Shown piece by piece: positions 1 through 19,979 of a stretch of DNA of 64,000 nucleotides. Numbering within the stretch: the first letter of the stretch is position 1; every line of letters starts with the position of its first letter. Source of the DNA: Solirubrobacteraceae bacterium (GTDB lineage Bacteria; Actinomycetota; Thermoleophilia; Solirubrobacterales; Solirubrobacteraceae); the NCBI GenBank assembly GCA_025451035.1, contig JANWLE010000069.1, forward strand, positions 13,483-77,482. Reading direction: 5' to 3'. A program made the translations under genes and the position numbers. The notes beneath the pieces were generated by a model. That model had not been told where the DNA came from. It saw only the letters and a program-made list of their open reading frames with translations, and did not search any database.

Positions 1-845
1 AACTCATCCACGATCAGCACACAGCCCTGCTGCCTCGGCTTACGCGTTGAGAAGTACTGGGTGAAGTCCTCGAACAAGAAGCGAGCGAGGCCGGCGGTCT
101 CCTCCCGCAGCCTCAATGTTTCTAGGAGCAGGTAGCCGGCGGTCGTGTCTTCCCAGCACCAGCTGCCGTTCAGGGCGCCGTGGAGTTCGCCGAAGAACGC
201 GTCGTAGCGCAACCTGACTTGCTGCACCTGCGCGCGGCTCAACGTGGCCGCCACTCCGTCGTGCGGGTGCGCGGCGCGCAACACGTCGAGGTCCATTCGC
301 TCCAACACCATCCCGGCGGTGCGTGGTGGTCCTTCGGGGTGGTGGCAGACCAGTCGCAGCACGGTCTTCGCTACATCCCGGTACCACGCGGCTGGCCCCT
401 CGGTCGCGTAGTCGATGATCTCCATCAACCGCGCCTGCACATCAGAGGCGCCGCCACGCCAGCCATCGAACCGCTCACAAGGAAACACACGACAGTCCCG
501 GCCAGCGTCTCGCATGAGGCCGAGGAACCGCTCTGCGTTCTCACGGTCGCCCTTCCCGTCCAGGTAGAACACGGGGACATCTGAGCGCTTCGCGACCGTC
601 CAAGCCAAACGCAACAACGTCTCTGTCTTCCCGGACCCGGTGGCTCCGAGGACAAGCACGTGGTGCACGAGCCGTCTCGGCGGAAGAAAGATCCATCCTT
701 CCTGCGGCGGCAGTGCTTTCTCGCCGGAGAGCTTGCGGGCGAACACGAAACCCGCCTCACCACCGAACTGGCCGACCAACGGTGGCGGACCAATCACCGG
801 CACCACCGGCTGGCGACGGCTACCAAAGATGCTTCTGGCAGTCAT
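1..845 (-). CDS. Conjugative coupling-type P-loop ATPase (TraD/TraG/VirD4- or TcpA/FtsK-like), 3' end cut by the window edge; absent from the supplied ORF track
   Basis: My own minus-strand translation starts at ATG 845..843, preceded by GGGGAGGGG. It reads MTARSIFGSRRQ...RRLVHHVLVLGATGSGKTETLLRLAW (Walker A) and later ...QQGCVLIVDEF (Walker-B-like). The frame stays open to position 1. It lies directly downstream of a Replic_Relax gene. Confidence 0.7.
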   Translation of the reverse strand, partial: MTARSIFGSRRQPVVPVIGPPPLVGQFGGEAGFVFARKLSGEKALPPQEGWIFLPPRRLVHHVLVLGATGSGKTETLLRLAWTVAKRSDVPVFYLDGKGDRENAERFLGLMRDAGRDCRVFPCERFDGWRGGASDVQARLMEIIDYATEGPAAWYRDVAKTVLRLVCHHPEGPPRTAGMVLERMDLDVLRAAHPHDGVAATLSRAQVQQVRLRYDAFFGELHGALNGSWCWEDTTAGYLLLETLRLREETAGLARFLFEDFTQYFSTRKPRQQGCVLIVDE

Positions 846-850
846 AGTGC

Positions 851-1525
851 TCACGACCCCTCCCCGGCGTTCGTTGGTAGCTCGCGTATCCCGAGGCCGG
901 GCCAACGGCCAGCCGAAACCAGCTGCTCCAAGCGCTTGTGGGCGGCGGGCGCGCAGAAATAGAGAACGCCGCCGTACCGCCGGGCCAGCTCGTCGAGGAT
1001 CGTCTTGATCCGCTGCTGAGACTTGACGGTCAACTCAACCTCAACGGCGATCTCCTGGCCATCGACCACTACGACCGCGTCTGGGAGGTGCTCGCCCGGC
1101 CTGCGGTCCCGCGCCAACACGCGCTCGGAGATCCATGTCGATGATGGGGAGCGGGATTGGATGTGCAGCCGCACGTCGTTCACGGCGCCCACATGCCTCA
1201 AGAGAGCGAGGTTCGGCTTCCACACCCCGAACCCGAGACCTGAGACGCGGTTACCGAGCGGGGTTGGTGTGACCCACGCCGCCTGTCCGTACACAAGCCG
1301 CAACACCCTGACCAGGCCGTGCGCGCGGAGGCGAGTGACGACACGCTGCACGTTCCTGGGGCCGCAACCCAGCAAGCACTCGAGCTGGTCTACGCGCACC
1401 CCGTACATCTCTCCGGCCCACGCCAGGACATCTAGGTCACGAGACCTGACCAAGCCAGCATCGCTCCTCCGGGCTGGCGCTACGGGCACGGCATGCCGTG
1501 CCCTGTATGCGGGCAGGGTCCTCAC
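851..1525 (-). CDS. Replication-relaxation (Replic_Relax) family protein
   Basis: 224-aa ORF with a GTG start that overlaps the upstream stop (GTGA at 1522-1525). The N-terminus is wHTH-like (LDVLAWAGEMYGVRVDQLE...RLRAHGLV). The C-terminus is nuclease-like (PDAVVVVDGQEIAVEVELTVKS), as in Replic_Relax proteins of actinobacterial plasmids and ICEs. Recognised from memory, not searched. Confidence 0.7.
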   Translation of the reverse strand: MRTLPAYRARHAVPVAPARRSDAGLVRSRDLDVLAWAGEMYGVRVDQLECLLGCGPRNVQRVVTRLRAHGLVRVLRLVYGQAAWVTPTPLGNRVSGLGFGVWKPNLALLRHVGAVNDVRLHIQSRSPSSTWISERVLARDRRPGEHLPDAVVVVDGQEIAVEVELTVKSQQRIKTILDELARRYGGVLYFCAPAAHKRLEQLVSAGRWPGLGIRELPTNAGEGS

Positions 1526-1893
1526 TTGCCGCGCCCCCCAGGCTTCTCCGAGATGACATACCAGCCGTCTGGTCGTTTATCGAACCGGATGCCTCTGCCG
1601 CGATGCAGATGCTGGGAGATCGTGGTCAACGGGACGTTCATGCCCTTCGCGATCTCGTTAGCCCGCACACCAGGATGCGCCTCCAGGAACGCGGTGACCT
1701 CGTCCTGGGTGATACGCCTGACCATGCTCCCCAACACCGAAGGACCAGCCTCACCCGTGATCTCACGACGCGCGGTCAGCAAGCTCCGCCGCTCAGCCAT
1801 CAGCTCCTGAGCCACCTTGAGCTCGCGATCCAGCACAGCCAGCCGCTCATCGATCTGAGCGACCACACCACGCACACCAGGCCTCTTAGCCAT
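1522..1893 (-). CDS. Small winged-helix/HTH DNA-binding protein
   Basis: ATG at 1893 is preceded by GGAGGG. The track start at 1956 is probably over-extended. HTH-like segment VRANEIAKGMNVPLTTISQHLHR. Translationally coupled to the Replic_Relax gene. Confidence 0.65.
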   Translation of the reverse strand: MAKRPGVRGVVAQIDERLAVLDRELKVAQELMAERRSLLTARREITGEAGPSVLGSMVRRITQDEVTAFLEAHPGVRANEIAKGMNVPLTTISQHLHRGRGIRFDKRPDGWYVISEKPGGRGK

Positions 1894-1899
1894 CAACCC

Positions 1900-1980
1900 T
1901 CCAGTCCAATAACAAACAACATATACACAAACTAACGCACTAACGTTATATGTCAAGTAGATTAGACAATCGTACTAGGA
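1900..1980. promoter_or_regulatory. AT-rich control region upstream of the HTH/Replic_Relax/ATPase operon (promoter and possibly oriT)
   Basis: A low-GC stretch in an otherwise GC-rich context. It has a tandem direct repeat ACTAACG (1931-1937 and 1939-1945) running into the palindrome AACGTT. The function is inferred only from its position. Confidence 0.3.
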
Positions 1981-2081
1981 GGGGCTCATCTCAACCCGCC
2001 GTGGGGCGTCGGCAAGTCGTCCCGCAAACGTTCGATCCCCGCGAAAGCGACACTGTCCCAGCCGTCGCATGACCTAGACTC

Positions 2082-2438
2082 GTGTCAGTGTCGTTGCATC
2101 TCTTCGCGGGTATGCGCGTGCGGGACCTCCAAGCGGCCAGGCCGTGGTATGAGCGGCTGCTGGGCGAGCCGACGTTCCTCCCCCACGCCACCGAGGCGGT
2201 GTGGACGCTCGCCGAGGACCGGTCGGTTTATGTCGTCGAGCACGCCGATGGCGCGGGCCACTGCTTGGTGACGATCTTCCTCGACGATCTCGACGCCCAC
2301 ATAGCCACGATCGCTGCCCGCGGACTCGAGCCAGACGAGCGCGAGACATACACGGGCGGCGTACGCAAGGCCATCTACCGCGACCCGGACGGCAACGAGC
2401 TGGGGTTCGGCGGCGCGCCGCTCCACACCGATTCATAA
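2082..2438 (+). CDS. VOC (glyoxalase/bleomycin-resistance/dioxygenase) family protein
   Basis: 118 aa with a GTG start. Typical VOC pattern: LHLFAGMRVRDLQAARPWYERLLG ... YRDPDGNELGF. Confidence 0.8.
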   Translation: MSVSLHLFAGMRVRDLQAARPWYERLLGEPTFLPHATEAVWTLAEDRSVYVVEHADGAGHCLVTIFLDDLDAHIATIAARGLEPDERETYTGGVRKAIYRDPDGNELGFGGAPLHTDS

Positions 2439-2649
2439 CGAGCGGGCGCCTGCGACCGAGCCACTCGCGTACTCTCCGGCCGAAGCAGTAGCAGGGGCTA
2501 CCGGAGGTCGTGCTCTCCCAGCTCGTCCAACTCGGGCGTCTCGCTGGCTAACGCGGGCGGCGCCTGCTTTCACGCGGAAACCGGGGTCACCATTCCCCGC
2601 GCTTCATGCGCGTGCGGTGCTGGAAGCAGGTGTCCCGTTTGCCGATCGC

Positions 2650-3843
2650 TCAGCGGGGTGTTCGGAGCTCTTCGATCCTGCGGGTAAGGAGAGCGCGCTC
2701 GGTCTTGTTCTGGGTGAGCGCTAGCGCGCTGCGGTATGCCCGGTCGGCTTCGGCCTGGCGGCGAAGGCGGCTGAGCAGATCGCCGCGGATCGCGTGAAAC
2801 AAGTAGTAGCGCTCGAGTTTCAGCTCATCGACGAGCGGGAGCGCGGCGCTGGGGCCGTGCACCTCGGCTACGGCGACCGCTCGGTGTAGCGACACGATCG
2901 GACCGGGAGCGGCGGCTAGCAGCTGGTCGTAGAGCTGCAAGATCTGTGCCCAGTCGGTGGCCTCGAACGTCGGTGCGTCGCTGTGAACAGCGTTGATCGC
3001 CGCCTGGATCTGATAGGGCCCTGGCTGGTCGCGCCGCAGACATTCCCGCACGAGCGCCTGACCCTCGGCGATCAGCCGGCGATCCCAGCTCCGGCGGTCT
3101 TGGTTGGCAAGGAGTGCGAGTTCGCCGTCAGGAGTGGTGCGGGCAGGGTGGCGGGCATGGATGAGCAGCATGAGAGCCAGCAGCCCTTTGGCCTCTGGTT
3201 CGTCAGGCATCAGCCGAGCCAGCAACCGTCCCAAGCGGATCGCCTCGATGCAGAGGTCCTCGCGAGCGAGCCGCTCGCCTGAGCTGGCCGCGTAGCCCTC
3301 ATTGAAGATCAAATAGATCACCGATAGAACCGCACGCACGCGTTCAGGGAGATCAGCCTCGAAGGGAACGCGGTATGGAATGCCGGCGTCTCGGATCTTG
3401 CTCTTGGCGCGAACCAGTCGCTGAGCCATGGTCGTCTCGCTAACGAGAAACGCGCGTGCAATCTCAGGGGTGCTGAGACCGCCGAGCAGCCGCAGGGTCA
3501 ACGCCACCCGGGCGGTTATCCCGAGCGCCGGGTGACAGCAAGTAAAGATCAACCGGAGGCGATCGTCTTGCACCGGGCCCTCCTCACTCGGCGGTTCTTG
3601 GAAGTGCAGAATCGCCGCTTGGGCATGGCGATCGCCACGGGAGGACTCGCGCCGCAGCCGGTCAATCGCGCGGTTGCGGGCGGTGGTAATGATCCATCCC
3701 GCGGGACTCGGAGGCAGGCCGGAGGACGGCCAGCGCTCCGAGGCAGCGGCGAAGGCGTCCTGGACCGCGTCCTCGGCCAGATCGATATCGCCGAAAGCGC
3801 GGGCCAGGACTGCCACCGCCCGTCCGTGCTCCTCCCGGAACAC
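2650..3843 (-). CDS. ECF-type RNA polymerase sigma factor with a long C-terminal extension (the kind paired with YciI proteins)
   Basis: Sigma-2 and sigma-4 regions are recognisable: [30 protein letters not shown] and [26 protein letters not shown] ~200-aa helical C-terminal domain follows. The 545-aa track ORF (to 4287) is a read-through composite. The most plausible start is GTG 3843..3841, and the start is uncertain. Confidence 0.8.
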
Positions 3844-7113: not shown

Positions 7114-7722
7114 ATGGCAGACGGCGATTACTACGCGCGGAATCTAGCTCCCAGATGGAGGAAGGTCCGCAACACACTGTTGGGTCGTCATGATGTCCGT
7201 GTGGTTGGCGGCCTCGCTCGCGAAGCCTACGCTGAGACTATGCGCCTGGGTAACGGTGTCCCCGGCCTGAACGAGTTGTGCGGTGCGTTCGCGGCTGCGG
7301 CTCTGGACGGAGATCGTGACACGTGGACGGCGATCAACGAGGAGGTGCGGCGTGCCGTGAAACATCACGCGAATACCGAGATCGCCGCGATGGCGGGCCA
7401 GGCGCTGCTTGAGAACGACGATGGTCGACTTCGAGCCATGAGCGAAGACGAGCTTGCCGAGACGCTCGCCAAGGCCACGGCAGATCGCATCGCGCGGCAC
7501 CACTTCGCCAAGTGTCATCAAGGCCGGCTACCGGATACGTTCGCCAGCGCGAGCGAACTCCAGGCCCGCGCACGGGAGGCCTTGGCGTGCATGGACACGG
7601 CAGGCCTCGCGCGTGAGATGCTTCGCCACGAGGACGGCCGAGCTTTCAAGGCACCCGCGCGGCAGACCTCGGCGGCCGGCACCCAGCGACTCATCGGACG
7701 GACGCTTGTGGGTAGGTCGTGA
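7114..7722 (+). CDS. Hypothetical protein, first gene of the QueC-like cassette
   Basis: 202 aa, Ala/Arg-rich and apparently helical. Its stop overlaps the next start (GTGA at 7719-7722). Confidence 0.65.
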   Translation: MADGDYYARNLAPRWRKVRNTLLGRHDVRVVGGLAREAYAETMRLGNGVPGLNELCGAFAAAALDGDRDTWTAINEEVRRAVKHHANTEIAAMAGQALLENDDGRLRAMSEDELAETLAKATADRIARHHFAKCHQGRLPDTFASASELQARAREALACMDTAGLAREMLRHEDGRAFKAPARQTSAAGTQRLIGRTLVGRS

Positions 7723-9107
7723 CCGTGAGCGCGGCCGGAACCTGGAGGTCTCCGGCGGGTATCGAGTTTCGTGTCAGCGCGTCTCGCGCGTACCGGCTGG
7801 ACGATGCGATGATCGCCGCGACGTTCCGAGCGCGACTTCCTGAGCGTGTTGCAGATCTGCTCGATATCGCCATGGAGGTATATGCGGCCGACCGGCTGAC
7901 TACGCGCAGTCTTCGTGATCCGATCGGCCGCGGGTGGTGTCGCGAGCTTTCGCCGGTGATCGAGGTCCGCGACGTCGAGTTTTGGTCGTCTGACCAGGTC
8001 GCCGGCACATTGACGGGCGTCCTTGACTGGTTGACCGACGATTATTGGGAGCTGTGTTTTGTTCCGTTCCGGGGCCAGCGCTCTCACGCTGAGACGCAGG
8101 ACACCCTTTTCTCGTTCCGACCGGAGAACATTGCCGCTGTCGCCTGCTTCAGCGGTGGGCTTGACTCGTTTGGTGGTGCGGCGATCGATCTGGGTGAGCA
8201 GGAAGACCTTGAGCTTGTCCTCGTCGGCGCGAGCGGAACGAACCGCGCCCGCTCGCTGCAACGCGAGCTCTCCACAGAGTTGGCGACGCGTACGGGGCGC
8301 GTTCAGCCACTCCTGGTCAAGGCGAATCTCGTCGGCGCGAAGGCGCGGCCCCAGGATCGCCACCAGCGCACACGCGGGCTGCTGTTTCTCTCTCTCGCCG
8401 CCGCGACGGCGCTTGTCGCCGATGTCGACGAAATCCGCGTATACGAGAATGGCGTCGGCGCGATCAACCTTCCGTACAGTCATGGTCAGATCGGCGCTCA
8501 CATGTCGCGCTCAGCCCATCCCAAGACACTCGCGGCGATGCAACGTCTTGTGGATCTCATTGACGTGGCAGGGGTGCGCTTCACCTTGCCACGAATGTTC
8601 GACACTAAGGCCGAGCTCACCGCTCGAATCCCAGAGCAGTTCACGGACCTCATTAGGAGGACAGTGTCATGTGATACGTGGTCCTCCGATCGTCAGCCGC
8701 CGCCGCCGAAAGGTGAGCGCGTCCACCGCTGCGGCAGCTGCTCGAGCTGCATTCTGAGGCGGCAGGCGCTTTACGCCAGCGGCCGCGTTTCGCTCGACGC
8801 GCATGAGCGCTATCGCGCGAACGCCTTTGCGAGTAACCCTACTAATGCCGCCGCATTTTCACTACGTCTGATGCTCAACCAGATCGCCGAGCTTGACGCC
8901 GCTACTAGTGCCGAGCACCCATGGGCCGCGCTCGTTGAGGTGTTCCCGCAGCTCGTTGAGGCGCGGGACGCACTACTGAATCTTGGTCATGGCTCCAGCG
9001 TCGAAGACGAGCTGGTCGGACTTTACCGCCGCCACGCCGACGAGTGGCGTCGGGTGGAGGCACCGATTGTGGAACGGTACTTGGGGACGGTGCCGTCATG
9101 GGCGTGA
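7719..9107 (+). CDS. QueC-fold PP-loop ATPase with a ~140-aa N-terminal extension (QatC-like)
   Basis: PP-loop CFSGGLDSFGGA. The stretch GLLFLSLAAATALVADVDEIRVYENG resembles QueC GRNLLFLSFAA...VTG. TKAELTARI is also present. C-terminal Zn-cysteine cluster SCD...HRCGSCSSCILRRQAL. There are no que or tgt genes nearby. Confidence 0.85.
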   Translation: MTVSAAGTWRSPAGIEFRVSASRAYRLDDAMIAATFRARLPERVADLLDIAMEVYAADRLTTRSLRDPIGRGWCRELSPVIEVRDVEFWSSDQVAGTLTGVLDWLTDDYWELCFVPFRGQRSHAETQDTLFSFRPENIAAVACFSGGLDSFGGAAIDLGEQEDLELVLVGASGTNRARSLQRELSTELATRTGRVQPLLVKANLVGAKARPQDRHQRTRGLLFLSLAAATALVADVDEIRVYENGVGAINLPYSHGQIGAHMSRSAHPKTLAAMQRLVDLIDVAGVRFTLPRMFDTKAELTARIPEQFTDLIRRTVSCDTWSSDRQPPPPKGERVHRCGSCSSCILRRQALYASGRVSLDAHERYRANAFASNPTNAAAFSLRLMLNQIAELDAATSAEHPWAALVEVFPQLVEARDALLNLGHGSSVEDELVGLYRRHADEWRRVEAPIVERYLGTVPSWA

Positions 9108-10249
9108 GCGAGGCGGAGCTCCGTAACCCGAACCTGCCAAAGCGACTGCGCAACGCGCGACGCGACCGAGGCCTGACTCAGGAGGCTGTCGCTGAGCAGC
9201 TAGGGCTTGCCCGCACGTCGCTTGTGGCGCTTGAGAAGGGCGAGCGCTTCATCCGCCCAGACGAGCTCGTCGTGATGGCCCGGCTTTACGGTCGCCCGAT
9301 CGATGAGCTTCTCCGCCCAAGCGCTCCCGCCGACAACTTCGTCGGGCAGTTTCGCACGTCGCTCTCGCGCACAGCAGATGCCGACAAGCTTGAGGACGCA
9401 ATCCGCACGATAGAGCGTTACGCTGAGGACTACCGTGAGCTCGAGCGTCGCTCCGGCGTCGCTCCGGATCACCGGTACCCTGCGCCCTACTCGGTTGATG
9501 GGCTGTCACCCACGGCTGCGGCAACAGAAATCGCCTCGACTGAGCGCAATCGCCTGGGCCTTGGTGACGGACCACTGCCTAACCTCCGCGACATCCTTGA
9601 GACGAAGCTGGGGATCCGAGTCTTCTTTATTGAGCTGCCACCCCGGATTGAGGGCTTTTTCGCGTTCACACCGGAGACCGGCGCGTGCATTGCTGTGAAT
9701 GCCAAGCACCCGGTAGAGCGTCAACAGTGGACGATGGCGCACGAGTTCGCGCACTTCCTAACCCGGCGCTTGCGCGCAGAGATCACAGTGTCAAAGATGG
9801 AGCCGCGGGGCCGCACTCCTCAGCACGAGCGGCTCGCCGAGGCATTCGCCGGCGACTTCCTGATGCCGACCTCCGGCCTGACACGCGACTTCAACGCGAT
9901 CCGGCGCACAGGCGTGGAGGGTGTGACCCCGGGCACCCTCGTTGAGCTGGCCGCGTTCTATCGCGTTTCGTTTCAAGCACTGGTCGTCCGCCTGGAAGGA
10001 CTTGGCCTCCTGCCTCGTGGGACATTCGACATGCTCCAGCACGAGCGCTTCAGCGTCGCAGAGGCACGCCGCCTGCTCGGGCTATCTGCGCCGGAGCCCG
10101 ACACCCGTGTGTTCCCGGTGCGGTACGTGACGCTGGCTGTTGACGCCTACCGGGACGGCAGCATTTCGGAGGGTGCGTTCGCGCGCCTCCTCCTCCTCGA
10201 TCGTGTTACCGCGCGCGCAGTCGCGCGCACTCTCGAAAACATGGCATAG
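9098..10249 (+). CDS. XRE-family HTH fused to an ImmA/IrrE (COG2856) metallopeptidase
   Basis: ATG 9098 lies inside the last 10 nt of the upstream gene. HTH: LRNARRDRGLTQEAVAEQLGLARTSLVALEKGER. Zn motif: MAHEFAHFL (HExxH), followed by EAFAGDFLMP. Confidence 0.85.
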   Translation: MGVSEAELRNPNLPKRLRNARRDRGLTQEAVAEQLGLARTSLVALEKGERFIRPDELVVMARLYGRPIDELLRPSAPADNFVGQFRTSLSRTADADKLEDAIRTIERYAEDYRELERRSGVAPDHRYPAPYSVDGLSPTAAATEIASTERNRLGLGDGPLPNLRDILETKLGIRVFFIELPPRIEGFFAFTPETGACIAVNAKHPVERQQWTMAHEFAHFLTRRLRAEITVSKMEPRGRTPQHERLAEAFAGDFLMPTSGLTRDFNAIRRTGVEGVTPGTLVELAAFYRVSFQALVVRLEGLGLLPRGTFDMLQHERFSVAEARRLLGLSAPEPDTRVFPVRYVTLAVDAYRDGSISEGAFARLLLLDRVTARAVARTLENMA

Positions 10250-10251
10250 TA

Positions 10252-10806
10252 ATGGCGGCGCGCAGGCTCTCGATCGACGCCTGCGTGCTGATCAACCTGT
10301 GTGCGACCGGCCGCCTGCACGACATCGCCTCGAACCTGGATGCGTGTTTTATTGTCGTACAGGAGGTCGCAAGCGAGTCGTTCTACCTGTCTTCGACCGG
10401 TAAACGAGATGACAGGTTGACGCCGATAGACCTCGACGGTCTCCTCGCCAACGGGCTGATTGAGCTCACAAGTCTCGATGGTGACGAGTTCACGACGTTT
10501 GTCAGAGTGGCCGAGCGGCTCGATGACGGCGAGGCGGCAACGCTGGCGCTCGCGCTACACCGGGGTTTGCCCCTAGCCACAGATGATCGCGCCGCGCTAC
10601 GGTTGATCGATGCGGACTACCCGCGAATGGAGGTGCTGTCAACGTCGCAGATCATCCGGCGCTATTGCGAGCGAGCCCGTCTGTCGTCAGTCGACGTGGC
10701 CGGTTGTCTCAACGCGATCGAACAGCGCGCCAGCTTTGTCCCACCGGATCGTGACCCAGAGGTGGAGTGGTGGCGGTCGGCGCGGGAAAGCGTAAGGGGC
10801 GATTAG
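10252..10806 (+). CDS. PIN-like nuclease domain protein
   Basis: Starts 2 nt after the upstream stop. Acidic PIN-type positions: SIDACVLINL, DDGEAATLALA and LATDDRAA. PIN or DUF4411-type partners of COG2856 proteins are a known pairing. Confidence 0.65.
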   Translation: MAARRLSIDACVLINLCATGRLHDIASNLDACFIVVQEVASESFYLSSTGKRDDRLTPIDLDGLLANGLIELTSLDGDEFTTFVRVAERLDDGEAATLALALHRGLPLATDDRAALRLIDADYPRMEVLSTSQIIRRYCERARLSSVDVAGCLNAIEQRASFVPPDRDPEVEWWRSARESVRGD

Positions 10807-12283: not shown

Positions 12284-12991
12284 GTGGGCTGGGTTATGCT
12301 CCACTGCATGCCAAACGGCCGCCACGCGTTCAATCCGCTCGATCGCGTCGAGCTTGGCCGCAGCGTTGGCCGAGCCCTACTTCTGAGCCCGTGTGAGGAG
12401 CTCCCTCCTGAGCGCTTTGACGGAGTTGGTATCTACGCGCTCTACTACCAAGGCGACTTCGATCCGTATCGACCCGTCGCGTTGGCGGGTTGCGAGTGGC
12501 CGATCTATGTCGGGCGTGCTATGCCTGCTGGAGGTCGTAAGGGCTTGATCGGGCTGAACGCGTCGCCGGGCCGCAAGCTCTATGAGCGTCTACGTCAGCA
12601 CTACAGCTCGGTGAAGGCGGCCAAAAACCTAGACGAGCGTGACTTCCGTTGCCGATACCTTGTCGTGGACGACATCTGGATTCCGCTCGCCGAGCGTCTG
12701 CTGATCGGCCACTACCGGCCCCTGTGGAACGGCGTTGTGGACGGCTTCGGTATCCACGCGCCCGGTGGTACGCCTGGGGGCACGACGGGTCGCGCTGGTC
12801 AGCAGAAGTCTGCTTGGGACACATTGCATCCGGGTCGATCATTCGCCAAGGGCCGGCCCACGCGAGTGAAGCTCGCGGAGATCCGATCACGAATCGCCAA
12901 GCACATCGAAGCGCACCCGCCCCAAGCGGGCGAGCCGCCAACCCTCGCCGATCCCCCAGCTCTCGAGGCTCCAGGCGAGCTCGAAGACTAG
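12284..12991 (+). CDS. Eco29kI-family (GIY-YIG) type II restriction endonuclease
   Basis: LPPERFDGVGIYALYY, WPIYVGRAMPAGGRKG, FRCRYLVVDDIWIPLAERLLIGHYRPLWNGVVDGFGIHAPG and SAWDTLHPGRSFA match the Eco29kI pattern. The start is uncertain (GTG 12284, or ATG 12296/12308). Confidence 0.85.
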   Translation: MGWVMLHCMPNGRHAFNPLDRVELGRSVGRALLLSPCEELPPERFDGVGIYALYYQGDFDPYRPVALAGCEWPIYVGRAMPAGGRKGLIGLNASPGRKLYERLRQHYSSVKAAKNLDERDFRCRYLVVDDIWIPLAERLLIGHYRPLWNGVVDGFGIHAPGGTPGGTTGRAGQQKSAWDTLHPGRSFAKGRPTRVKLAEIRSRIAKHIEAHPPQAGEPPTLADPPALEAPGELED

Positions 12992-13067
12992 GGTGAGTTA
13001 CGGCACAAAGTTGGCTCTAAACAGGCGCTAAGCGCGGACACTTGTAGATGATGGCGCGTAGCTTCGG

Positions 13068-14432
13068 TTGGCTATGACGTCAGTCAAAAGTTCCGCCGAG
13101 CTCCGCGGTAGTGTCACGACCATGTCGCTGGGTTTTGAGCTGGCACGGCGGCCAGTCGATGCCATCTCTTCCTCAGCCGCAGGCACCTCGATCGAGCTAT
13201 TCGCGGGTGGTGGTGGCCTGGCTCTAGGTGTTCACGAGGCTGGCTTTCAGCACTTGCTCGTGAACGAGCTGGACCGTCGCGCGTGTGAGACTCTCCGCGA
13301 GAACGTCGCGGAGGACTTCGAGGCTCAATCCAGTGACGGTCGCTGGCCGTTGCTCGCCGGTGATGTCGCCGCGATCGACTGGAGTCCGTTCGCCGGGAGG
13401 GTTGATCTGCTCGCTGGTGGCGCTCCCTGCCAGCCGTTCTCGCTTGGCGGTCGCCACCGTGGCGAGCAGGACAAGCGCAATTTGTTCCCCGAAGTCTTTC
13501 GCGCGATGCGTGAAGTGCGCCCTAGGGCGTTCTTGCTGGAGAATGTGCGTGGTCTGCTGCGCCAATCCTTCAGGCCGTACTTCGATTATATTCTCGACCA
13601 GCTACGGCAGCCGTATCTCTCGCCGAAGCGAGGAGAGTCCTGGGAGCGCCACAAGGCTCGCCTCGAGCGCCAAGGCTCTCCATATGGAGCGGAGAGGGAT
13701 CGCTATGTCGTGCACACGCTGCTCGTAAACGCGGCCGACTATGGCCTGCCGCAGAACCGCCACCGCGTCCTCATCGTCGGCTTCCGCGAAGACCTCGGCG
13801 TAGAGTGGACCTGGCCTGAGGCAACACACAGCCGCCGTGCGCTCGTATGGGCGAAGAAGAACGGGTCCTACTGGAGAGAGCACGGGATCCGCCCCGTGAC
13901 GGATCCAAGCGGTCCCAACGGCGAAGGCGGATCCCATCGCGAGCCGCCAGAGCTACGCTGGCGAACTCTTCGAGACGCGATCAAGGGACTTCCTGAGCCA
14001 GTCGATGGGAAGGAGCATCCCAGGATCGCCAACCATGTCGGCATCCCCGGTGCTCGCCTGTATACAGGGCATACGGGCAATCCGCTCGACTGGCCCGCCA
14101 AGACGGTCAAGGCCGGCGTGCACGGCGTGCCTGGTGGTGAGCACGTGCTGCTCCGCGACGATGGCACCCACCGCTATCTCACCGTCCGCGAGTGCGCCCG
14201 ACTACAAGGCTTCCCGGACTCCTACCGCTTCACGGGACCTCGCAGCGAGGCAATGCGCCAGATCGGCAACGCCGTACCGGTTCCGCTTGCTCGACTTATT
14301 GCCGTCCGCGTAGCCGATAAGCTCGCTGGAACACTACGTCCAGCGCATGCAGACAACAACGGAGCGTCGCCGAGATCCCGCTGTCACCTCCCGGATGATG
14401 GCAGCGGTCAAGCACAAGGACTCACGGGCTGA
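13068..14432 (+). CDS. dcm: DNA (cytosine-5)-methyltransferase
   Basis: Motif [13 protein letters not shown], motif [14 protein letters not shown], motif [10 protein letters not shown], motif [15 protein letters not shown], then [15 protein letters not shown] and motif [10 protein letters not shown]. The start may be ATG 13074. Confidence 0.92.
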
Positions 14433-14790
14433 GCTTGCCCTTCGCCGTGAGCTGCACGCTCGCGGTGTGCGCTATCGCCTACACGCCAGAGATGTCTTTG
14501 GTTGTCCGGACATCGTCGTGCGAAAGCGCGGCGTCGCCGTGTTCGTCGACGGAGACTTCTGGCACGGCAACGCCCACAACAGGCGGGGCCTGAAAAGCCT
14601 CGAGGACCTGTTCCCCAGCAACAAGGAGTTCTGGGTGCCGAAGATCCACAGAACGATGGAGCGCGACCGCGAAGTCACCGCCACCCTGCAAGCCAATGGC
14701 TGGCAAGTCGTAAGGCTCTGGGAGGAAGACGTCCTAGAAGCGCCCGCGCTCGCTGCGGACAGGGTCGAGCGCCTCATACGAGGTCGATAG
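14347..14790 (+). CDS. vsr: Very short patch repair endonuclease
   Basis: [33 protein letters not shown]...GCPDIVV...[11 protein letters not shown]...W..KI..N..RD. It overlaps the 3' end of the methyltransferase by 86 nt in another frame. Confidence 0.85.
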
Positions 14791-14878
14791 CTTGCCTCGC
14801 TGGGCACCACGGCCACCCCTGGCTGTGGTGTGGAGGGCACCCTCTGGATCACGGGCCGACCGTACGCAGGAACAGGAC

Positions 14879-15112
14879 ATGGCCGCTGGTGGACCATCCG
14901 CTAGAAAGGTCAGATTGACCGACGGTCGAACGGCGATTGGCTCCATACGCCTTCGACATCTCCCCAAAACACGCCGTGTCTATGCCTATCTGCGCTATAG
15001 CCGGAACGGACAAACGATCACGAGGTATGTCGGCGACGCCACCGCTAACACGCGCGGCGAAGCTCTCAAAAAGGCTTGGGCCGAAGCGCGCCGCAGAGGT
15101 CTACTAAGCTAA
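14879..15112 (+). CDS. Small hypothetical protein downstream of vsr
   Basis: ATG 14879; 78 aa (…RRVYAYLRYSRNGQTITRYVGDATANTRGEALKKAWAEARRRGLL). A terminator follows. I recognise no family with confidence. Confidence 0.45.
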   Translation: MAAGGPSARKVRLTDGRTAIGSIRLRHLPKTRRVYAYLRYSRNGQTITRYVGDATANTRGEALKKAWAEARRRGLLS

Positions 15113-15136: not shown

Positions 15137-17026
15137 CTATGCGCCTGGCGCGCCAGGCGTTTCTGTTCGCCCGGGGCGGCTTGCTGCCGCCTCACCAAGC
15201 TTACTCTTGCGCGCAACATAAGTAATGAAGTCAGCATCCCCAATCCTATTTCGATCGGGCATGCTTGTGGCACGAGCCTGTATTTGGACTAGATCTGCGT
15301 ATACGTCTATTTCAGTAAAACCAGCGTTTCGCAGTAGTGAGAAGAGCTCTCCGTGCGAGAATGCGTGCAGGACTAGATCAGAGCCTCTCAATCTGCGGTC
15401 GTCAAGTTCACCGCGGTCACTAATCGCCGGCACGTTCCTAAAGAATCGCCAGTGAACCATCCGAGCGCCCTTATCCACGTGAGCCGGATACCCACGTATC
15501 TTTTGGCCTCGGTACATCACGTCACCTTGGGTAGTGGCAGAAAACTCCTTGACTGGATCAAAGTTAATACTTCGCGCGTTATCTAGTATGGCCTGAAAGT
15601 TCCGCTCATCAATGACTAGCAGGCCGTCCCCTACTAGTGATTCACGAAACGTCTTTAGGCACTGAAGTCGGCCAGCCGCGTCATCCACTAGGCATAGCGA
15701 GTTCCCAAGACAAAGAAGCGCGTCAAAGCGCAGATTTCCAGGCAACTGGTCTGGAAGGTCCTCCCACAGAATACTCATAAAATGGAGGTTTACGTCCTGG
15801 CTCTCGGCATACTCGAGCGCCTGCTGGGCAAGTAGTCCGTCTACCTCATTGGGGAACACTTGAAAGTCGTGGCGCATGAGAAACACGCTGTCGCATGCAA
15901 TACCAGCCGCAGCGTCAAACACCGATCGCTTACCGTCGAGGGTCTCAAGGAGGAACCTGGCCATCCCACCTTCCTCACGCGCCTCTGGCTCTACATAGTT
16001 GATCCACTCTACCGCCAGCTCTCTGTTTACCAGATCGAGGCCTGGCGCAACCTTCTCTAGAGGGATGGCCTCCGCCAAGACCTTCGTGACAAACTCACTG
16101 ATCTTCTCATATGTAGTGTTCTCTCTTTGGCTATCTCCCGGAAACCACATGCCCAACTTCGTGATGCCAGTGGACGTGTCGGGTTCAAACATAACAGCAA
16201 AATTCTTCCACAGGCAGACATCAGCGTTGCCAATCCCGTACTCTTGACGAAGAGCGTTTGCGCGGGCGACATCAATCCACGTCACATCAACGTCGTGATC
16301 CTGGTGCCAGCGGTAGAAGCTCTGGTAGTCGGGACGAGCATGCCGCCAATCCTTACTTAGGTCGCCTCGTGAAGTCGTCAACACGCGGCGGTCGTGCTTT
16401 GGATTGCCACGCTCACCAAGACTTTCGGCATGGGCGTCGAGATACCACGCATACTGAGTCATGTACTCGGCCGGGCGATGGCTATCCACGCCAATATAGG
16501 CTCCCCCACCGTTACTAAAAAAGCGGGCGAACCAAGGCCGCATCGCGGTTGTGTTGGTGACTGGATAGCCGGGCCCAGTGAGTCCCCCAACGATGTCGCG
16601 CGTTGCCTGTATCTGGGCTGTAGCGAAGCTACGAAGAAACTCGCGCTTGGGCTCTTGGGTGCAGGCGGCGATATCGCGGACGTGCGACATCATCGCTGGA
16701 ACACCCCACGTGATGGACCACCGCGTAAACATCATCACGGCTATGAGGACCGAGATATCAAAAGCGACCTCGGTAAACGCGTTATTGCCAAGAGGCGCTA
16801 GCTGCTGCCTTTGGGCGAAGGCAAGAAGGAGTCTGGCGACTACGGTTGTGACCAGCGGAATGGCAAAATCACGTGTCCAGCCACGAGTGGCAAGGCGGTG
16901 GAGCCACCAGTGCCAGACTGATCTCAGTAGCCGGTGTATTGGCTGAGGCAGGTGGTGCCCTATGCGCCTGATCCAGGAAGACTGACGACGGATTTGAGCA
17001 TCCTGAGCGGTTTCAATAGTCGACAT
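15137..17026 (-). CDS. Membrane-anchored protein with an unknown central domain and a C-terminal GNMT-like class I SAM methyltransferase
   Basis: The likely start is ATG 17026 (MSTIETAQ...). Two hydrophobic segments: FAIPLVTTVVARLLLAF and VAFDISVLIAVMMFTRW. The C-terminus resembles glycine N-methyltransferases: VFDAAAGIACDS, FDALLCLGNSLCLV and DGLLVIDERNFQAIL. GC is lower than in the core, by eye. Confidence 0.7.
   Translation of the reverse strand: MSTIETAQDAQIRRQSSWIRRIGHHLPQPIHRLLRSVWHWWLHRLATRGWTRDFAIPLVTTVVARLLLAFAQRQQLAPLGNNAFTEVAFDISVLIAVMMFTRWSITWGVPAMMSHVRDIAACTQEPKREFLRSFATAQIQATRDIVGGLTGPGYPVTNTTAMRPWFARFFSNGGGAYIGVDSHRPAEYMTQYAWYLDAHAESLGERGNPKHDRRVLTTSRGDLSKDWRHARPDYQSFYRWHQDHDVDVTWIDVARANALRQEYGIGNADVCLWKNFAVMFEPDTSTGITKLGMWFPGDSQRENTTYEKISEFVTKVLAEAIPLEKVAPGLDLVNRELAVEWINYVEPEAREEGGMARFLLETLDGKRSVFDAAAGIACDSVFLMRHDFQVFPNEVDGLLAQQALEYAESQDVNLHFMSILWEDLPDQLPGNLRFDALLCLGNSLCLVDDAAGRLQCLKTFRESLVGDGLLVIDERNFQAILDNARSINFDPVKEFSATTQGDVMYRGQKIRGYPAHVDKGARMVHWRFFRNVPAISDRGELDDRRLRGSDLVLHAFSHGELFSLLRNAGFTEIDVYADLVQIQARATSMPDRNRIGDADFITYVARKSKLGEAAASRPGRTETPGAPGA
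15142..15167 (+). terminator. Intrinsic terminator for the R-M/vsr operon
   Basis: Perfect palindrome CGCCTGGCG/CGCCAGGCG (15142-15159) followed by TTTCTGTT. It overlaps the last codons of the convergent minus-strand gene. Confidence 0.5.
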
Positions 17027-17323
17027 GGCGCGGCACCCTACAGCATCGGTGCGAAAGATGCTAGTCGCTGGTACGGGTCGGCTAAACGGAATGGTTGGGA
17101 AGAGGGACGTAAGTGGGTGGTTGCGCCCGCGCCGCGCGAAGTGATCACTGAGGCCGAGAGCGACAGCGATTGGCCGCGCCCACCGTGCCAGCCTTAGGTA
17201 ACCCAAGATCCTGTATTGCAGCAGGGTTATTGCGCCGGAGTTAGCCGCCGCCGTCCATCATGTGCGTGGTGCGGCTCGAGACATATCGGCGGATACGTCG
17301 CCGGCATGAACGGCATCGTGAAC

Positions 17324-18256
17324 TTATCGGAGATCCAGGTCCCCGCTGTTGTCTGGATCGTGCTCAAAGCGTCCGAGGTCATCCTCGCGATGTCGGAGGG
17401 AGATGACGTGGGCGCGGCGGTCAGTTATCTCCCAAACAAAGAATTGACGACGCACCTCGCCTCTGCGGACGCCGCTGGAACCTGCGGCGGCTACGTATAG
17501 CGGGCCGTGATCCCACTTTTGCAATCCAAACTTCATGATCGTTGTTGCGTGTTGATGACCGTGCAACACCAGCGATGCCCCGAGTTCTACTAGACGTCTG
17601 ATTACTATTGTGGCGTCAACCGTAACGCTCACAACCAGCCGATCACTGTCGCCTGGATTAGCTGTCGCTGGCAGCACGGGCCGCGACCCCACAGGCAAGA
17701 GGTGATGATGTAGTACGGCCACGACTGTGTGCGTATCGGCGCTGATTCGTGCCTCACGCATACGGGCGCTGAGCGCATCCAGCTGTCGTTCGCCGACTAG
17801 CCCGAGACCTCTTTGGGCTTCGCTCTCAAGCTGGCATGAATCTAGCGCCACGATGGCCAATGGCTTCGAATGGTCATGTTCGATGATATGTACGGCCGGA
17901 AGGTCGACTGATGCTCCGAGCGCTTGCGCCAGCAACTTGTAGTCGTAGAGCTTGTCAGCCGGCTTAGCATCCCAGTCCACATCGTGGTTGCCGGGCACCA
18001 TGATGACGGATGTTGCGCCTGCCGCGCGAGCCAGTTGCTGGAGCTGCAGGCGTGCCTCGGCGCGCTCGCCTGCTGCTCGAGTCGTAAAGATGTCGCCCGA
18101 GAGAATTAGCGCATCGAAGCTAAGAGGCACGCAGTTCTCTTCCAGCCCTAGAAGAATCGCCTCGCGGAAAGTTCGTGCTGTTGGTGGCCGTCCATCTTGA
18201 CCAAAGGCATGATCGCGCCCGAAGTGGATGTCGGATAGCTGCAGCAGACGGTACAT
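17324..18256 (-). CDS. Calcineurin-like metallophosphoesterase
   Basis: All signature motifs are present: LSDIHFG, SGDIF, PGNHD, LHHH and HGHQH. Confidence 0.85.
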   Translation of the reverse strand: MYRLLQLSDIHFGRDHAFGQDGRPPTARTFREAILLGLEENCVPLSFDALILSGDIFTTRAAGERAEARLQLQQLARAAGATSVIMVPGNHDVDWDAKPADKLYDYKLLAQALGASVDLPAVHIIEHDHSKPLAIVALDSCQLESEAQRGLGLVGERQLDALSARMREARISADTHTVVAVLHHHLLPVGSRPVLPATANPGDSDRLVVSVTVDATIVIRRLVELGASLVLHGHQHATTIMKFGLQKWDHGPLYVAAAGSSGVRRGEVRRQFFVWEITDRRAHVISLRHREDDLGRFEHDPDNSGDLDLR

Positions 18257-18377
18257 AAGAACTCGGATAGGCCCCGCCGAGACCCGCGATGCTAGCTACA
18301 CGAAGACCTCGTCGATAGAACGCTTGATGTTGGGAGCACACGGCGCGCAAGTCAAATGCTAAAACGCGTACGATCTG

Positions 18378-19979
18378 ATGCTGATGAAGCAGGTACCCGA
18401 CCTCGTATCCGTCCGCGAGATGGTCGACATGGTCCAGAATGGACAGCTCGCAATCCCTGAGTTCCAGCGGCCGTTTGTTTGGAAGCCTCCGCAAGTAGCC
18501 GACCTGCTTGTGAGCGTGGCGCGACGGTGGCCGATTGGGACACTGCTTCTCTTGGAGGGACCACAGGACTTCGCGGTAAGGCCATTGGCTGAGGCGCCAG
18601 AGGTCACGAGCGCAACGCTTCTGCTCCTTGATGGTCAGCAGCGCATGACGGCTCTCTACCGAGCCCTCGGCGACCACGTGGGCGACGAGGTCTACTACGT
18701 CGATTTTAACGCTCTGCGAGAAGACAACGAGCTGTCGGATGAGCATATTAAGGTTCGGCAGCGGAAGGCATTTGTCCGACAATACCCCGATGTTGCGGCT
18801 CGCGCCCGAAGCGGGTATGCGTTGGTAGGTGAGGTTGCGGACCCAGACCAATTCCTCGAATGGCTCCGCCAGGATCCCGCTGAAATGAAGGACTTTTCTT
18901 CCCTACGTAATTCGCAGCTCGCAGGACTTCAGGATTACTCGGTTCCGGCTGTGCGGCTTTCGCGCGATATCGGCTTTGAGGCGCTAGCCAAGATCTTTGA
19001 GACAATCAATCGTACGGGTGTGAGGCTGGCGACCTTCGACCTAATGGTCGCCCGCATGTATCCTCGAAACTTCGATCTGCGTGCGAAGTGGACCGCTGCC
19101 GTCGAGACACACGAGGATCTACGGCGATTCGCGGTAGAGGGTATGGAGATTCTGCGCCTGATTGCTCTACGTGAGCTGCTGCGCGAGATACGCGAGCAAG
19201 ATCTCCGCCGGGTAAAGGGCGTGCGCCAAGGAGACGTCCTCGGGCTCGATGCAGCGGTTGTCAAGCAAGACTGGGACGCATCCGTTGCTGCCTACGTCGC
19301 GGCGCTGGGCCTGGTCCGTAAGCGTTGCGGAGTGGTCAATAAGGCGCTTATGCCTGCTTCGACGATGTTGCTGCCCCTTGCCGCGACCCTAGCCGACAAC
19401 CGCGCGGGCGCTGAGCCGGCGGCGGAGCGGTTCTTTTGGGCTGCCGGTTTGGCACAGGTTTATGCCCAGGGCGCTAATACCCAAGCTGTGCGCGACGCGC
19501 GCGAGCTGGAGCGCGAGCTTGAAGGTGGAGAACCACCAGAGGTCGTATGTCGCGCCGAGGCAGACCAGGAGCTACTGCTGGATTCACGCCGCCGCAATGA
19601 GGTGCTATTGCGCACGCTTAGCTGCTTGTTGGTGCGTAATGGCGCGCGCGACTGGCTCACCGGACAGCCGCTTATCGATTTGGAAGATGAGCCGGTGGAG
19701 AGCATGGTGTTTCCAGAATCATGGTTGCGGTCCCGCGGAATCGTGCCAGATGGGTTGCTGAACTGGACGGTCCAGTCAAAGGAAACGGACGCGCAGCTTG
19801 CCGAGATGGAGCCATCCCAACTAGTGTCTCGTGGCGACCTTGTTCTCGCGGCAGTGGAGTCACAGCTGGTCGATCTCGCCGCACTACGTGCTAATGACTG
19901 GCAACTGTTTGCTGACAGCCGCGCACGGGCAATGCGTGGGCTTCTAGAGGTTCTGCTCCAGGATGTGCGCCAAATCTAG
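18378..19979 (+). CDS. DUF262 (ParB-like/GmrSD N-terminal type) domain protein without a recognisable His-Me nuclease domain
   Basis: IPEFQRPFVW and LLLDGQQRMTALY are the DUF262 signatures. There is no histidine in the last ~160 residues. Confidence 0.85.
   Translation: MLMKQVPDLVSVREMVDMVQNGQLAIPEFQRPFVWKPPQVADLLVSVARRWPIGTLLLLEGPQDFAVRPLAEAPEVTSATLLLLDGQQRMTALYRALGDHVGDEVYYVDFNALREDNELSDEHIKVRQRKAFVRQYPDVAARARSGYALVGEVADPDQFLEWLRQDPAEMKDFSSLRNSQLAGLQDYSVPAVRLSRDIGFEALAKIFETINRTGVRLATFDLMVARMYPRNFDLRAKWTAAVETHEDLRRFAVEGMEILRLIALRELLREIREQDLRRVKGVRQGDVLGLDAAVVKQDWDASVAAYVAALGLVRKRCGVVNKALMPASTMLLPLAATLADNRAGAEPAAERFFWAAGLAQVYAQGANTQAVRDARELERELEGGEPPEVVCRAEADQELLLDSRRRNEVLLRTLSCLLVRNGARDWLTGQPLIDLEDEPVESMVFPESWLRSRGIVPDGLLNWTVQSKETDAQLAEMEPSQLVSRGDLVLAAVESQLVDLAALRANDWQLFADSRARAMRGLLEVLLQDVRQI

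Follow-up and report, generated by a model that had tools for sequence, protein, structure and literature searches.

What becomes of a type IV restriction protein once its nuclease site has been lost, and which of its neighbors, if any, share in its function? This question is raised by a block of three genes (positions 15137-19979) within a 64,000-nucleotide stretch of contig JANWLE010000069.1 from a Solirubrobacteraceae bacterium, hereafter called the window. An initial annotation, made from the sequence alone, had read the block as a single unit composed of a membrane-anchored methyltransferase fusion (15137-17026, minus strand), a calcineurin-like metallophosphoesterase (17324-18256, minus strand) and a divergently transcribed DUF262 protein (18378-19979, plus strand). 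The open reading frame (ORF) list of the window contains all three ORFs at these coordinates, the divergent gap measures exactly 121 bp, and the peptides quoted in that annotation were all found at the expected positions. Pfam recognized GmrSD_N in the 533-amino-acid (aa) DUF262 protein and Metallophos in the 310-aa phosphoesterase, and returned no family for the 629-aa fusion. We conclude that the true unit consists of two genes, the DUF262 gene and the phosphoesterase gene, and not of three. We further propose, at what we regard as even odds, that they form a module, probably for anti-phage defense, that descends from a single-chain BrxU/GmrSD-type IV enzyme and in which a nuclease-dead sensor would act through a phosphoesterase effector in trans.

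The DUF262 protein and its degenerate nuclease domain

The 533-aa protein comprises, in this order, a DUF262 NTP-binding domain, a helical middle part, and a C-terminal His-Me-type domain that lacks the catalytic histidine. Its DUF262 identity, as initially annotated, is borne out by the match to Pfam GmrSD_N (6e-25), and the ParB/Srx-like domain extends over residues 14 to 226 (18417-19055, plus strand). Since the homologues open with MKQ or MQQ, translation may in fact begin at the ATG at 18384. The family, which counts at least 212 homologues, is invariant at P27, F29, Q30, R31, D85, G86, Q87, Q88, R89, E208, N211, F220, and D221; the two NTP-binding motifs, FQR (in IPEFQRPFVW, at residue 26) and DGQQR (residues 85 to 89, in DGQQRMTAL), are intact in the window protein and invariant in the family. 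An AlphaFold2 (AF2) model was obtained with a predicted local distance difference test (pLDDT) score of 91.7, and Foldseek aligned it over its full length, in about 620 columns, with BrxU (7p9m_A; E of 2.6e-12, probability of 1.0), with a low template modeling score (0.38) that we attribute to the domain arrangement. Foldseek also returned the DndI entry 9jfl_B (9.5e-4) and weak local matches to Cas9 HNH domains. In addition, the family profile matches BrxU in three stretches, one of which is C-terminal. Judging from the model, this is a full-length BrxU/GmrSD-like protein that has kept its C-terminal domain.

The published signature of the GmrD/DUF1524 His-Me finger is DHxxP...N...N, and at the position singled out in the initial annotation DDHHIFPxxYL...D.ILNRT.I...TNxxI is found in most members of the family. 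In an alignment of 30 homologues, and in a hidden Markov model (HMM) alignment of about 285 sequences, the segment ESMVFPESWLRSRGIVPDGLLNWTVQSKET of the window protein lines up with DDHHIFPxxYL...D.ILNRTLI..TN of its relatives. The finger occupies residues 439 to 474 (19692-19799, plus strand) and is laid out in the AF2 model as strand, short helix, strand, and helix, with a pLDDT above 90; it includes the peptides ESMVFPESWL (residue 441) and NWT (residue 462). While the former His-His site reads HH in 192 of the aligned sequences and DH in 13, the window protein has Ser-Met in this place and Glu-Thr instead of the distal Thr-Asn, with the scaffold residues P446 and N462 retained. The absence of a functional His-Me nuclease, as initially annotated, is upheld by these replacements. 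The accompanying remark that the last ~160 residues contain no histidine was true but understated, since the last histidine is residue 245 and none follows it. What did not stand is the statement that the His-Me domain itself is lacking: fold and alignment place it where it is expected, with only its catalytic residues replaced. The nuclease domain is kept and folded, catalytically degenerate rather than missing, and the protein is predicted to be unable to cut DNA by itself, its catalytic histidines being lost.

All homologues that are at least 52% identical share a His-less signature, [IV]FPxxW[LM]RxRG...LNW[ST]xQ. The former histidine pair varies freely among them (SM, TP, HP, RP, VR, VQ, QQ, RH) and the residues on either side are newly conserved as a patch, a pattern that points to a newly gained interface of the dead domain, with protein or DNA, and not to decay. 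A neighbor-joining tree, for which only alignment columns upstream of the motif were used, united the 23 proteins with this signature in one clade without any HH-intact member (0/23), and the sister of this clade, P0063, is HH-intact. All 23 members, down to about 52% identity, have an uninterrupted full-length ORF. According to this tree, the catalytic site appears to have been lost once, at the base of the clade.

The conserved pairing with a metallophosphoesterase

Divergent DUF262 and Metallophos genes, 61 to 121 bp apart, were found in six loci (the window, L012, L013, L014, L015, and L176), that is, in every locus of the His-less clade that was read directly (6/6). A seventh pair is indicated on a short contig by the agreement between the homologue lists of both proteins, an indirect reading of that locus; all paired loci are metagenomic. 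The pairing in L176 had been predicted beforehand from its DUF262 protein (P0047), which is 53% identical, carries the degenerate motif and had no partner listed. The prediction held, as a 332-aa Metallophos gene that a k-mer-limited search had missed lies divergently 68 bp away. When the six loci are compared, both proteins give identity matrices of the same topology, with the window, L012, and L013 in one group, L014 and L015 in another, and L176 outermost; the lowest identities are 37 to 41% for the phosphoesterase and 51 to 54% for the DUF262 protein. This congruence indicates that the pair has been co-inherited since the origin of the clade, the phosphoesterase having traveled with the DUF262 gene ever since its catalytic site died. 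Scans of genomes and metagenomes with the DUF262 alignment mostly returned HH-intact relatives at most 44% identical, which served as a negative set, and an HMM of the window-type phosphoesterase run against about 165 DUF262 loci found it only beside members of the His-less clade. The functional link between the DUF262 protein and the adjacent phosphoesterase, suspected in the initial annotation, is thus probable on the strength of the six paired loci and their congruent identities.

Four of the six paired loci lie in evident defense or mobile contexts. The neighbors in L014 comprise an integrase, SduA_C, and PIN toxin-antitoxin genes, and those in L015 an MmeI-type restriction-modification (R-M) system, Mrr, and PIN_12. 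In L176, three consecutive tyrosine-recombinase genes (406, 308, and 329 aa; 164-3293, plus strand) stand just upstream of the pair; this trio looks like a mobile element and may carry the module.

The 121-bp intergenic region of the window (18257-18377) presumably carries both promoters. Hexamers resembling TAGCAT, TAGGAT, or TACGAT lie a few bases upstream of each start, on both strands, and recur in the other five spacers (61 to 97 bp) when these are read by eye; they would fit back-to-back actinobacterial -10 boxes giving near-leaderless transcripts. A scan of the spacer for the sigma-70 consensus returned nothing, as expected for a high-GC organism.

The stand-alone phosphoesterase, the proposed effector, is a calcineurin-like enzyme (Pfam Metallophos, 3e-11) with five intact metal motifs, as initially described. 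The motifs are invariant across its family, in which D8, H10, G53, D54, G88, N89, H90, D91, H182 to H184, H231, and H233 do not vary, and the AF2 model has a pLDDT of 88.9. Its best NCBIfam match is DS9_1, "anti-phage phosphoesterase" (NF053862; 4e-39, 134.8 bits), over model positions 195 to 478 of 486 only, followed by PdeM (39 bits) and SbcD (28 bits). The full-length MisA-like homologues P0160 and P0176 cover DS9_1 from position 1 to 484, whereas the window type and its close relatives cover the catalytic part only. DefensePredictor yielded DS-9, a two-gene system that has been validated and in which mutation of the metallophosphatase abolishes defense, and a metallophosphatase domain is also essential for defense in DS-8. 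DS-9 is identical to Metis, in which MisA joins an N-terminal PUA-like sensor of N6-methyl-dAMP (m6dAMP) to a C-terminal calcineurin-like domain and MisB is a HAD phosphatase. MisA of Escherichia coli cleaves NAD+ to nicotinamide mononucleotide (NMN) and AMP and does not cleave ATP, and the Metis authors point out that the MisA-type catalytic domain occurs in many predicted defense systems. Since the window protein is closest to MisA/DS-9A (135 bits, versus 28 bits for SbcD), an NAD+-depleting effector is at least as likely as a nuclease. By these matches we assign the phosphoesterase to the MisA/DS-9A/DS-8 family of defense effectors, and we favor NAD+ over DNA as its putative substrate.

An exhaustive search returned 42 cluster representatives of phosphoesterase relatives at E of 1e-30 or below, which are either stand-alone proteins of ~315 aa or proteins of ~570 to 610 aa with a C-terminal extension. 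In P0186 to P0217 (about 560 to 613 aa), this extension of ~270 to 300 aa has no Pfam match and is unrelated, by HMM, to the DUF262 and methyltransferase families. In the more distant P0229 and P0231 (about 820 to 860 aa), the catalytic domain is fused C-terminally to a chaperonin-like domain (Cpn60_TCP1). The same catalytic domain is thus found with varied putative sensors (PUA-like, NACHT in DS-8, REC, chaperonin-like, and the uncharacterized extension), in the manner of a portable effector. The plasmid and phage collections yielded no homologue of this phosphoesterase. Foldseek ranked Bacillus subtilis YydB first (3.5e-13), then Rv0805, GpdQ, and Lmo2642 (about 1e-10), and Mre11 lower (1.4e-6). 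The YydB entry (PDB 9A6C, chain B) is an integrative crosslinking-mass spectrometry model of the YydD-YydB complex, a hint that members of this enzyme family work bound to the product of a neighboring gene.

Proposed mechanism and competing explanations

In BrxU, GmrSD, and SspE, recognition of foreign or modified DNA is coupled to an NTP-dependent switch. In the sensor-effector module that we propose, the nuclease-dead DUF262 protein would likewise sense modified or otherwise foreign DNA, with NTP binding or hydrolysis as the switch, and would then activate the phosphoesterase in trans, thereby replacing the PUA-like sensor domain that MisA holds in cis. The effector would most likely hydrolyze NAD+ (to NMN and AMP, in the manner of MisA) or another nucleotide, and so halt phage replication. 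A more specific version, in which a type IV restriction lineage has turned into an abortive-infection system whose dead His-Me domain docks, through its W[LM]RxRG patch, onto a MisA-type NAD+-destroying phosphoesterase and activates it, is offered tentatively, as we think it rather doubtful.

The initial annotation had suggested that the missing nuclease is supplied by the phosphoesterase. It would then be a Mre11/SbcD-like DNase that restores the cutting step, the two proteins together forming a split modification-dependent restriction enzyme. The pairing does track exactly with the loss of the His-Me catalytic residues, GmrS and GmrD are separate subunits in the founding system, and the phosphoesterase family profile matches SbcD/Mre11 at 1e-9; the phosphoesterase also gave weaker matches to the NCBIfam models for PdeM ("ligase-associated endonuclease") and SbcD, and a match to a PADLOC "Effector Endonuclease" model (6.9e-6). 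However, the likeness to SbcD/Mre11 is limited to the first ~100 residues, which hold the generic metal motifs I to III, whereas the matches over the whole domain are to small-molecule phosphodiesterases, both by sequence (Lmo2642, 2e-14) and by fold (YydB, Rv0805, and GpdQ, 1e-10 to 1e-13). Among families, the NAD+-cleaving MisA/DS-9A leads by about 100 bits, and the 310-aa protein carries no Mre11-type capping or DNA-binding domain; we therefore consider a nuclease in trans unlikely. Less probable still is that the two genes are regulator and target, with the DUF262 protein as a DndB- or ParB-like DNA-binding NTPase that would control phosphoesterase transcription from the shared spacer, without protein-protein activation, and the phosphoesterase as either a toxic effector repressed until infection or a housekeeping phosphodiesterase. 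DndB, which consists of DUF262 only, regulates transcription of the dnd operon, Foldseek also matched the Dnd-system entry 9jfl_B, and the short divergent spacer in all six loci is the classic geometry. Yet a repressor of 533 aa with all NTPase motifs and the whole BrxU architecture would be a large one, inspection of the six spacers by eye revealed no conserved operator-like repeat, the conserved patch in the dead nuclease domain suggests a new interface, and the contexts are mostly defense islands.

Lost catalytic residues are typical of a decaying gene, and the module is rare, so that the DUF262 protein might be a type IV enzyme in decay with a fortuitous neighbor. This is hard to reconcile with 23 intact full-length ORFs, invariant NTPase motifs, a new conserved signature, a confidently folded model, and a neighbor that is conserved and co-diverging, and we regard it as very improbable. 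The same holds for a three-gene system in which the membrane methyltransferase fusion would serve as sensor or self-protection component. The fusion gene is adjacent to the phosphoesterase gene, on the same strand, and shares its low GC content, and in L015 an unrelated N6-adenine methyltransferase gene follows the phosphoesterase gene. Nonetheless, the gene downstream of the phosphoesterase is a different one in each of the six paired loci, and in the window, where it is the fusion gene, a gap of 297 bp separates the two. No DUF262 gene or related phosphoesterase gene adjoins the fusion homologues in seven other contexts, the fusion-family HMM found no member in the ~165 DUF262 loci, and the catalytic domain of the fusion is of the small-molecule glycine/sarcosine type and not that of a DNA methyltransferase. 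The three-gene unit of the initial annotation, for which lack of co-conservation had been named beforehand as refuting, must accordingly be abandoned: the fusion is an unrelated gene of a rare family that arrived in the same low-GC island, and is not part of the module.

Several observations also weigh against the sensor-effector module itself. The pair is divergent and not co-transcribed, an arrangement that is unusual for multi-gene defense systems and typical of regulator-target pairs. The loci examined number six or seven, each of them metagenomic, and two (L012 and L013) have no obvious defense neighbors. Pfam DUF1524 was detected neither in the 533-aa protein nor in its HH-intact relatives, so that it is the motif, the fold match to BrxU, and the topology that support the His-Me assignment. 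On the effector side, the N-terminal motifs of the phosphoesterase also resemble those of SbcD/Mre11, its weak PADLOC match is to an endonuclease model, and its DS9_1 score lies far under the equivalog cutoff of 420 bits, which means that NAD+ specificity is not transferable with confidence.

If the pair is a working defense, it would illustrate a clean route from a self-contained restriction enzyme to a sensor for an exchangeable effector. It would also extend the recently discovered MisA-type NAD+-cleaving metallophosphatases to a system in which sensing is done by a separate protein, and would provide a tractable two-protein model of signaling from a DUF262 NTPase to an effector, a question also posed by Menshen, Dazbog, and PD-T4-2. 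Should the abortive-infection version be true, it would be the first link of DNA-modification sensing to NAD+ depletion and an example of a wider rule, as the other His-less branches each have a different conserved partner. Pipelines that annotate every DUF262 protein of this family as a "GmrSD restriction endonuclease" would err in this clade, and the 533-aa protein should not carry that label.

Neighboring genes, other lineages, and relation to known systems

Although a TTG at 17206 would allow a longer fusion ORF, a start at 17026 is favored by the alignment of homologues and by a public 629-aa gene call. As read initially, the protein has two N-terminal hydrophobic segments (residues ~53 to 72 and ~83 to 109) and a C-terminal domain related to glycine N-methyltransferase (GNMT). 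Between the two lies a conserved middle domain of ~230 residues (~110 to 340) that has no relative in Pfam or among PDB sequences. The C-terminal ~260 residues match glycine/sarcosine N-methyltransferase (GSMT; 5H02) at 2.8e-35 and GNMT at 9e-27, including the LCLGNSL and IDERNF motifs; VFDAAAGIA was located at residue 369, FDALLCLGNSLCLV at 434, and GLLVIDERNF at 468. Against the NCBIfam equivalog model for glycine/sarcosine N-methyltransferase, the fusion scores 74 bits, with a cutoff of 350. These features suggest a membrane-associated small-molecule methyltransferase. The family is rare, with 28 proteins among 5.8 billion searched and none found in a pattern scan of species-representative genomes. 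The seven homologue neighborhoods inspected (35 to 61% identity) vary in context, and several are mobile (integrase, transposases, type IV secretion system coupling protein). In L002 (9761-10744, minus strand) and L003 (8013-8996, minus strand), a 309-aa protein gene is convergent with the gene of the fusion homologue P0011. Its product is a homologue (116 bits) of the N-terminal membrane and middle domains of the fusion and has no methyltransferase domain, so that the middle domain also occurs as a stand-alone paralogue beside the fusion. The 309-aa neighbor in L002 had been considered as a candidate phosphoesterase and proved not to be one.

The HH-intact relatives of the DUF262 protein mostly adjoin N6-methyltransferase, type I, or BREX-like genes. 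A second His-less branch, with the motifs SR, RA, TS, and RH, was observed in L016 (7578-8477), L017 (7506-8300), L021 (3084-3899), L096 (2098-2889), and L116 (6283-7209). Its own conserved gene, directly downstream, encodes a protein of 264 to 299 aa with an invariant hydrophobic GDxFGAxTALFSGLAL segment, probably a small membrane protein and possibly a membrane effector, so that nuclease loss accompanied by the acquisition of a partner seems to have occurred more than once. In a third group (L040, L041, L042, L048, L100, L101, L111, L112, and L113), the C-terminal motif is missing or degenerate and an ORF of ~270 aa lies upstream of the DUF262 gene; it is very poorly conserved, without one invariant column, and may not be a real gene but a spurious ORF in high-GC DNA. 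Apart from one DUF6082 match in the second branch, Pfam and PADLOC gave no identity for the partners of these other His-less lineages. L119 (4779-8217, plus strand) encodes an HH-intact DUF262 protein of 752 aa and, downstream on the same strand, a phosphoesterase of 353 aa that belongs to a different subfamily from the window type (DS-8, 133 bits; PADLOC PDC-S60, 149 bits; "Effector Endonuclease", 117 bits), an arrangement seen once. In some distant homologues (L068, 5929-7752; L073, L108, and L165), the DUF262-family gene falls into two ORFs, an N-terminal one and one of ~278 aa that matches the C-terminal half (PDC-M55C positions 312 to 401 and the HEC-05 C terminus), so that it is either frameshifted or of a two-chain form like GmrS/GmrD.

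The block lies at the end of a defense island, and the genes further right look like housekeeping genes. Its lower GC content, remarked on initially, was reproduced (0.58, versus 0.65 in the right flank and 0.62 to 0.65 in the left flank), and the GC content at third codon positions is also lower in the block genes (0.59 to 0.65) than in neighboring genes (0.69 to 0.75). To the left of the block, the island contains a 462-aa ORF (7719-9107, plus strand) with a PADLOC QatC match (152 bits) and a weak Pfam QueC match, overlapped from upstream by a 202-aa ORF without matches (7114-7722, plus strand); together (7114-9107), they may be a partial or divergent Qat-type defense system. They are followed (9044-10806, plus strand) by the gene of a 401-aa protein with a helix-turn-helix and a Peptidase_M78 (ImmA/IrrE) domain, matched by many PADLOC RmrA models (at most 92 bits), and, 2 bp after it, by a 184-aa ORF without matches, a pair that looks like a RosmerTA-type antitoxin-toxin pair. 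In the region directly left of the block (12284-15112, plus strand) lies a full type II R-M cassette that includes Vsr: the restriction endonuclease is of the Eco29kI family (183 bits), the C5 cytosine methyltransferase is 454 aa long, and a Vsr mismatch endonuclease completes the set, after which comes an unassigned 106-aa ORF (14792-15112).

Compared with known systems, the 629-aa fusion has a C-terminal domain strongly resembling GSMT (5H02/5GWX) and GNMT, but it adds ~340 N-terminal residues comprising two membrane helices and a conserved domain, is not a soluble single-domain enzyme of about 260 to 290 aa like GSMT, and has no osmolyte-pathway genes as neighbors. The 533-aa protein resembles the BrxU/GmrSD type IV enzymes (PDB 7P9K and 7P9M; Eco94GmrSD) in its DUF262 domain with FQR and DGQQR, its helical middle, and its C-terminal beta-beta-alpha domain. 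BrxU is its best structural and sequence match, at an identity of only about 16%, and its HH-intact relatives occupy R-M or BREX-like loci as BrxU does. It differs from these enzymes in their defining catalytic feature, as the His-His is replaced and the distal Asn motif partly lost, and unlike BrxU it does not stand alone, its phosphoesterase partner looking obligate. The phosphoesterase in turn is homologous to the catalytic domain of MisA/DS-9A, with conserved metal residues, and more weakly to DS-8. It lacks the N-terminal PUA-like m6dAMP sensor of MisA (PF24405) and scores well below the NCBIfam equivalog cutoff for DS-9 (134.8 versus 420 bits). In Metis, the partner next to MisA is MisB or the membrane protein MisC; no HAD domain such as that of MisB adjoins the pair in the six loci, where the neighbors are the DUF262 gene and variable genes.

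The initial annotation knew of no named system with this composition, and PADLOC and the literature search agreed. Partial PADLOC matches of the 533-aa protein were to PDC-M55C, NsnA, HEC-05/06, and SspE (23 bits, weak and N-terminal). For the PADLOC candidate system PDC-M55, only the C model matched (81 bits, positions 11 to 382 of 554, in the N-terminal and middle parts); the phosphoesterase and the methyltransferase matched none of its models at E of 0.1 or below, no neighbor matched components A or B, and PDC-M55 is not mentioned in the literature searched. PADLOC found no PDC-M55, Nsn, Ssp, or Dnd component among the other window genes, and the window ORFs examined included no dnd or ssp modification genes. 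Likewise, no paper in the literature searched links DUF262 with a metallophosphoesterase. The pair is a rare and undescribed combination of known domain families. Its nearest functional parallels are Menshen (NsnA with an OLD-family nuclease), Dazbog, PD-T4-2, and SspE/DndB/DndI, in which a DUF262 NTPase serves as sensor or regulator for a separate effector. None of these, nor PDC-M55, contains a metallophosphoesterase, and, unlike its counterparts in Menshen, Dazbog, and PD-T4-2, the DUF262 protein of the window retains a vestigial nuclease domain.

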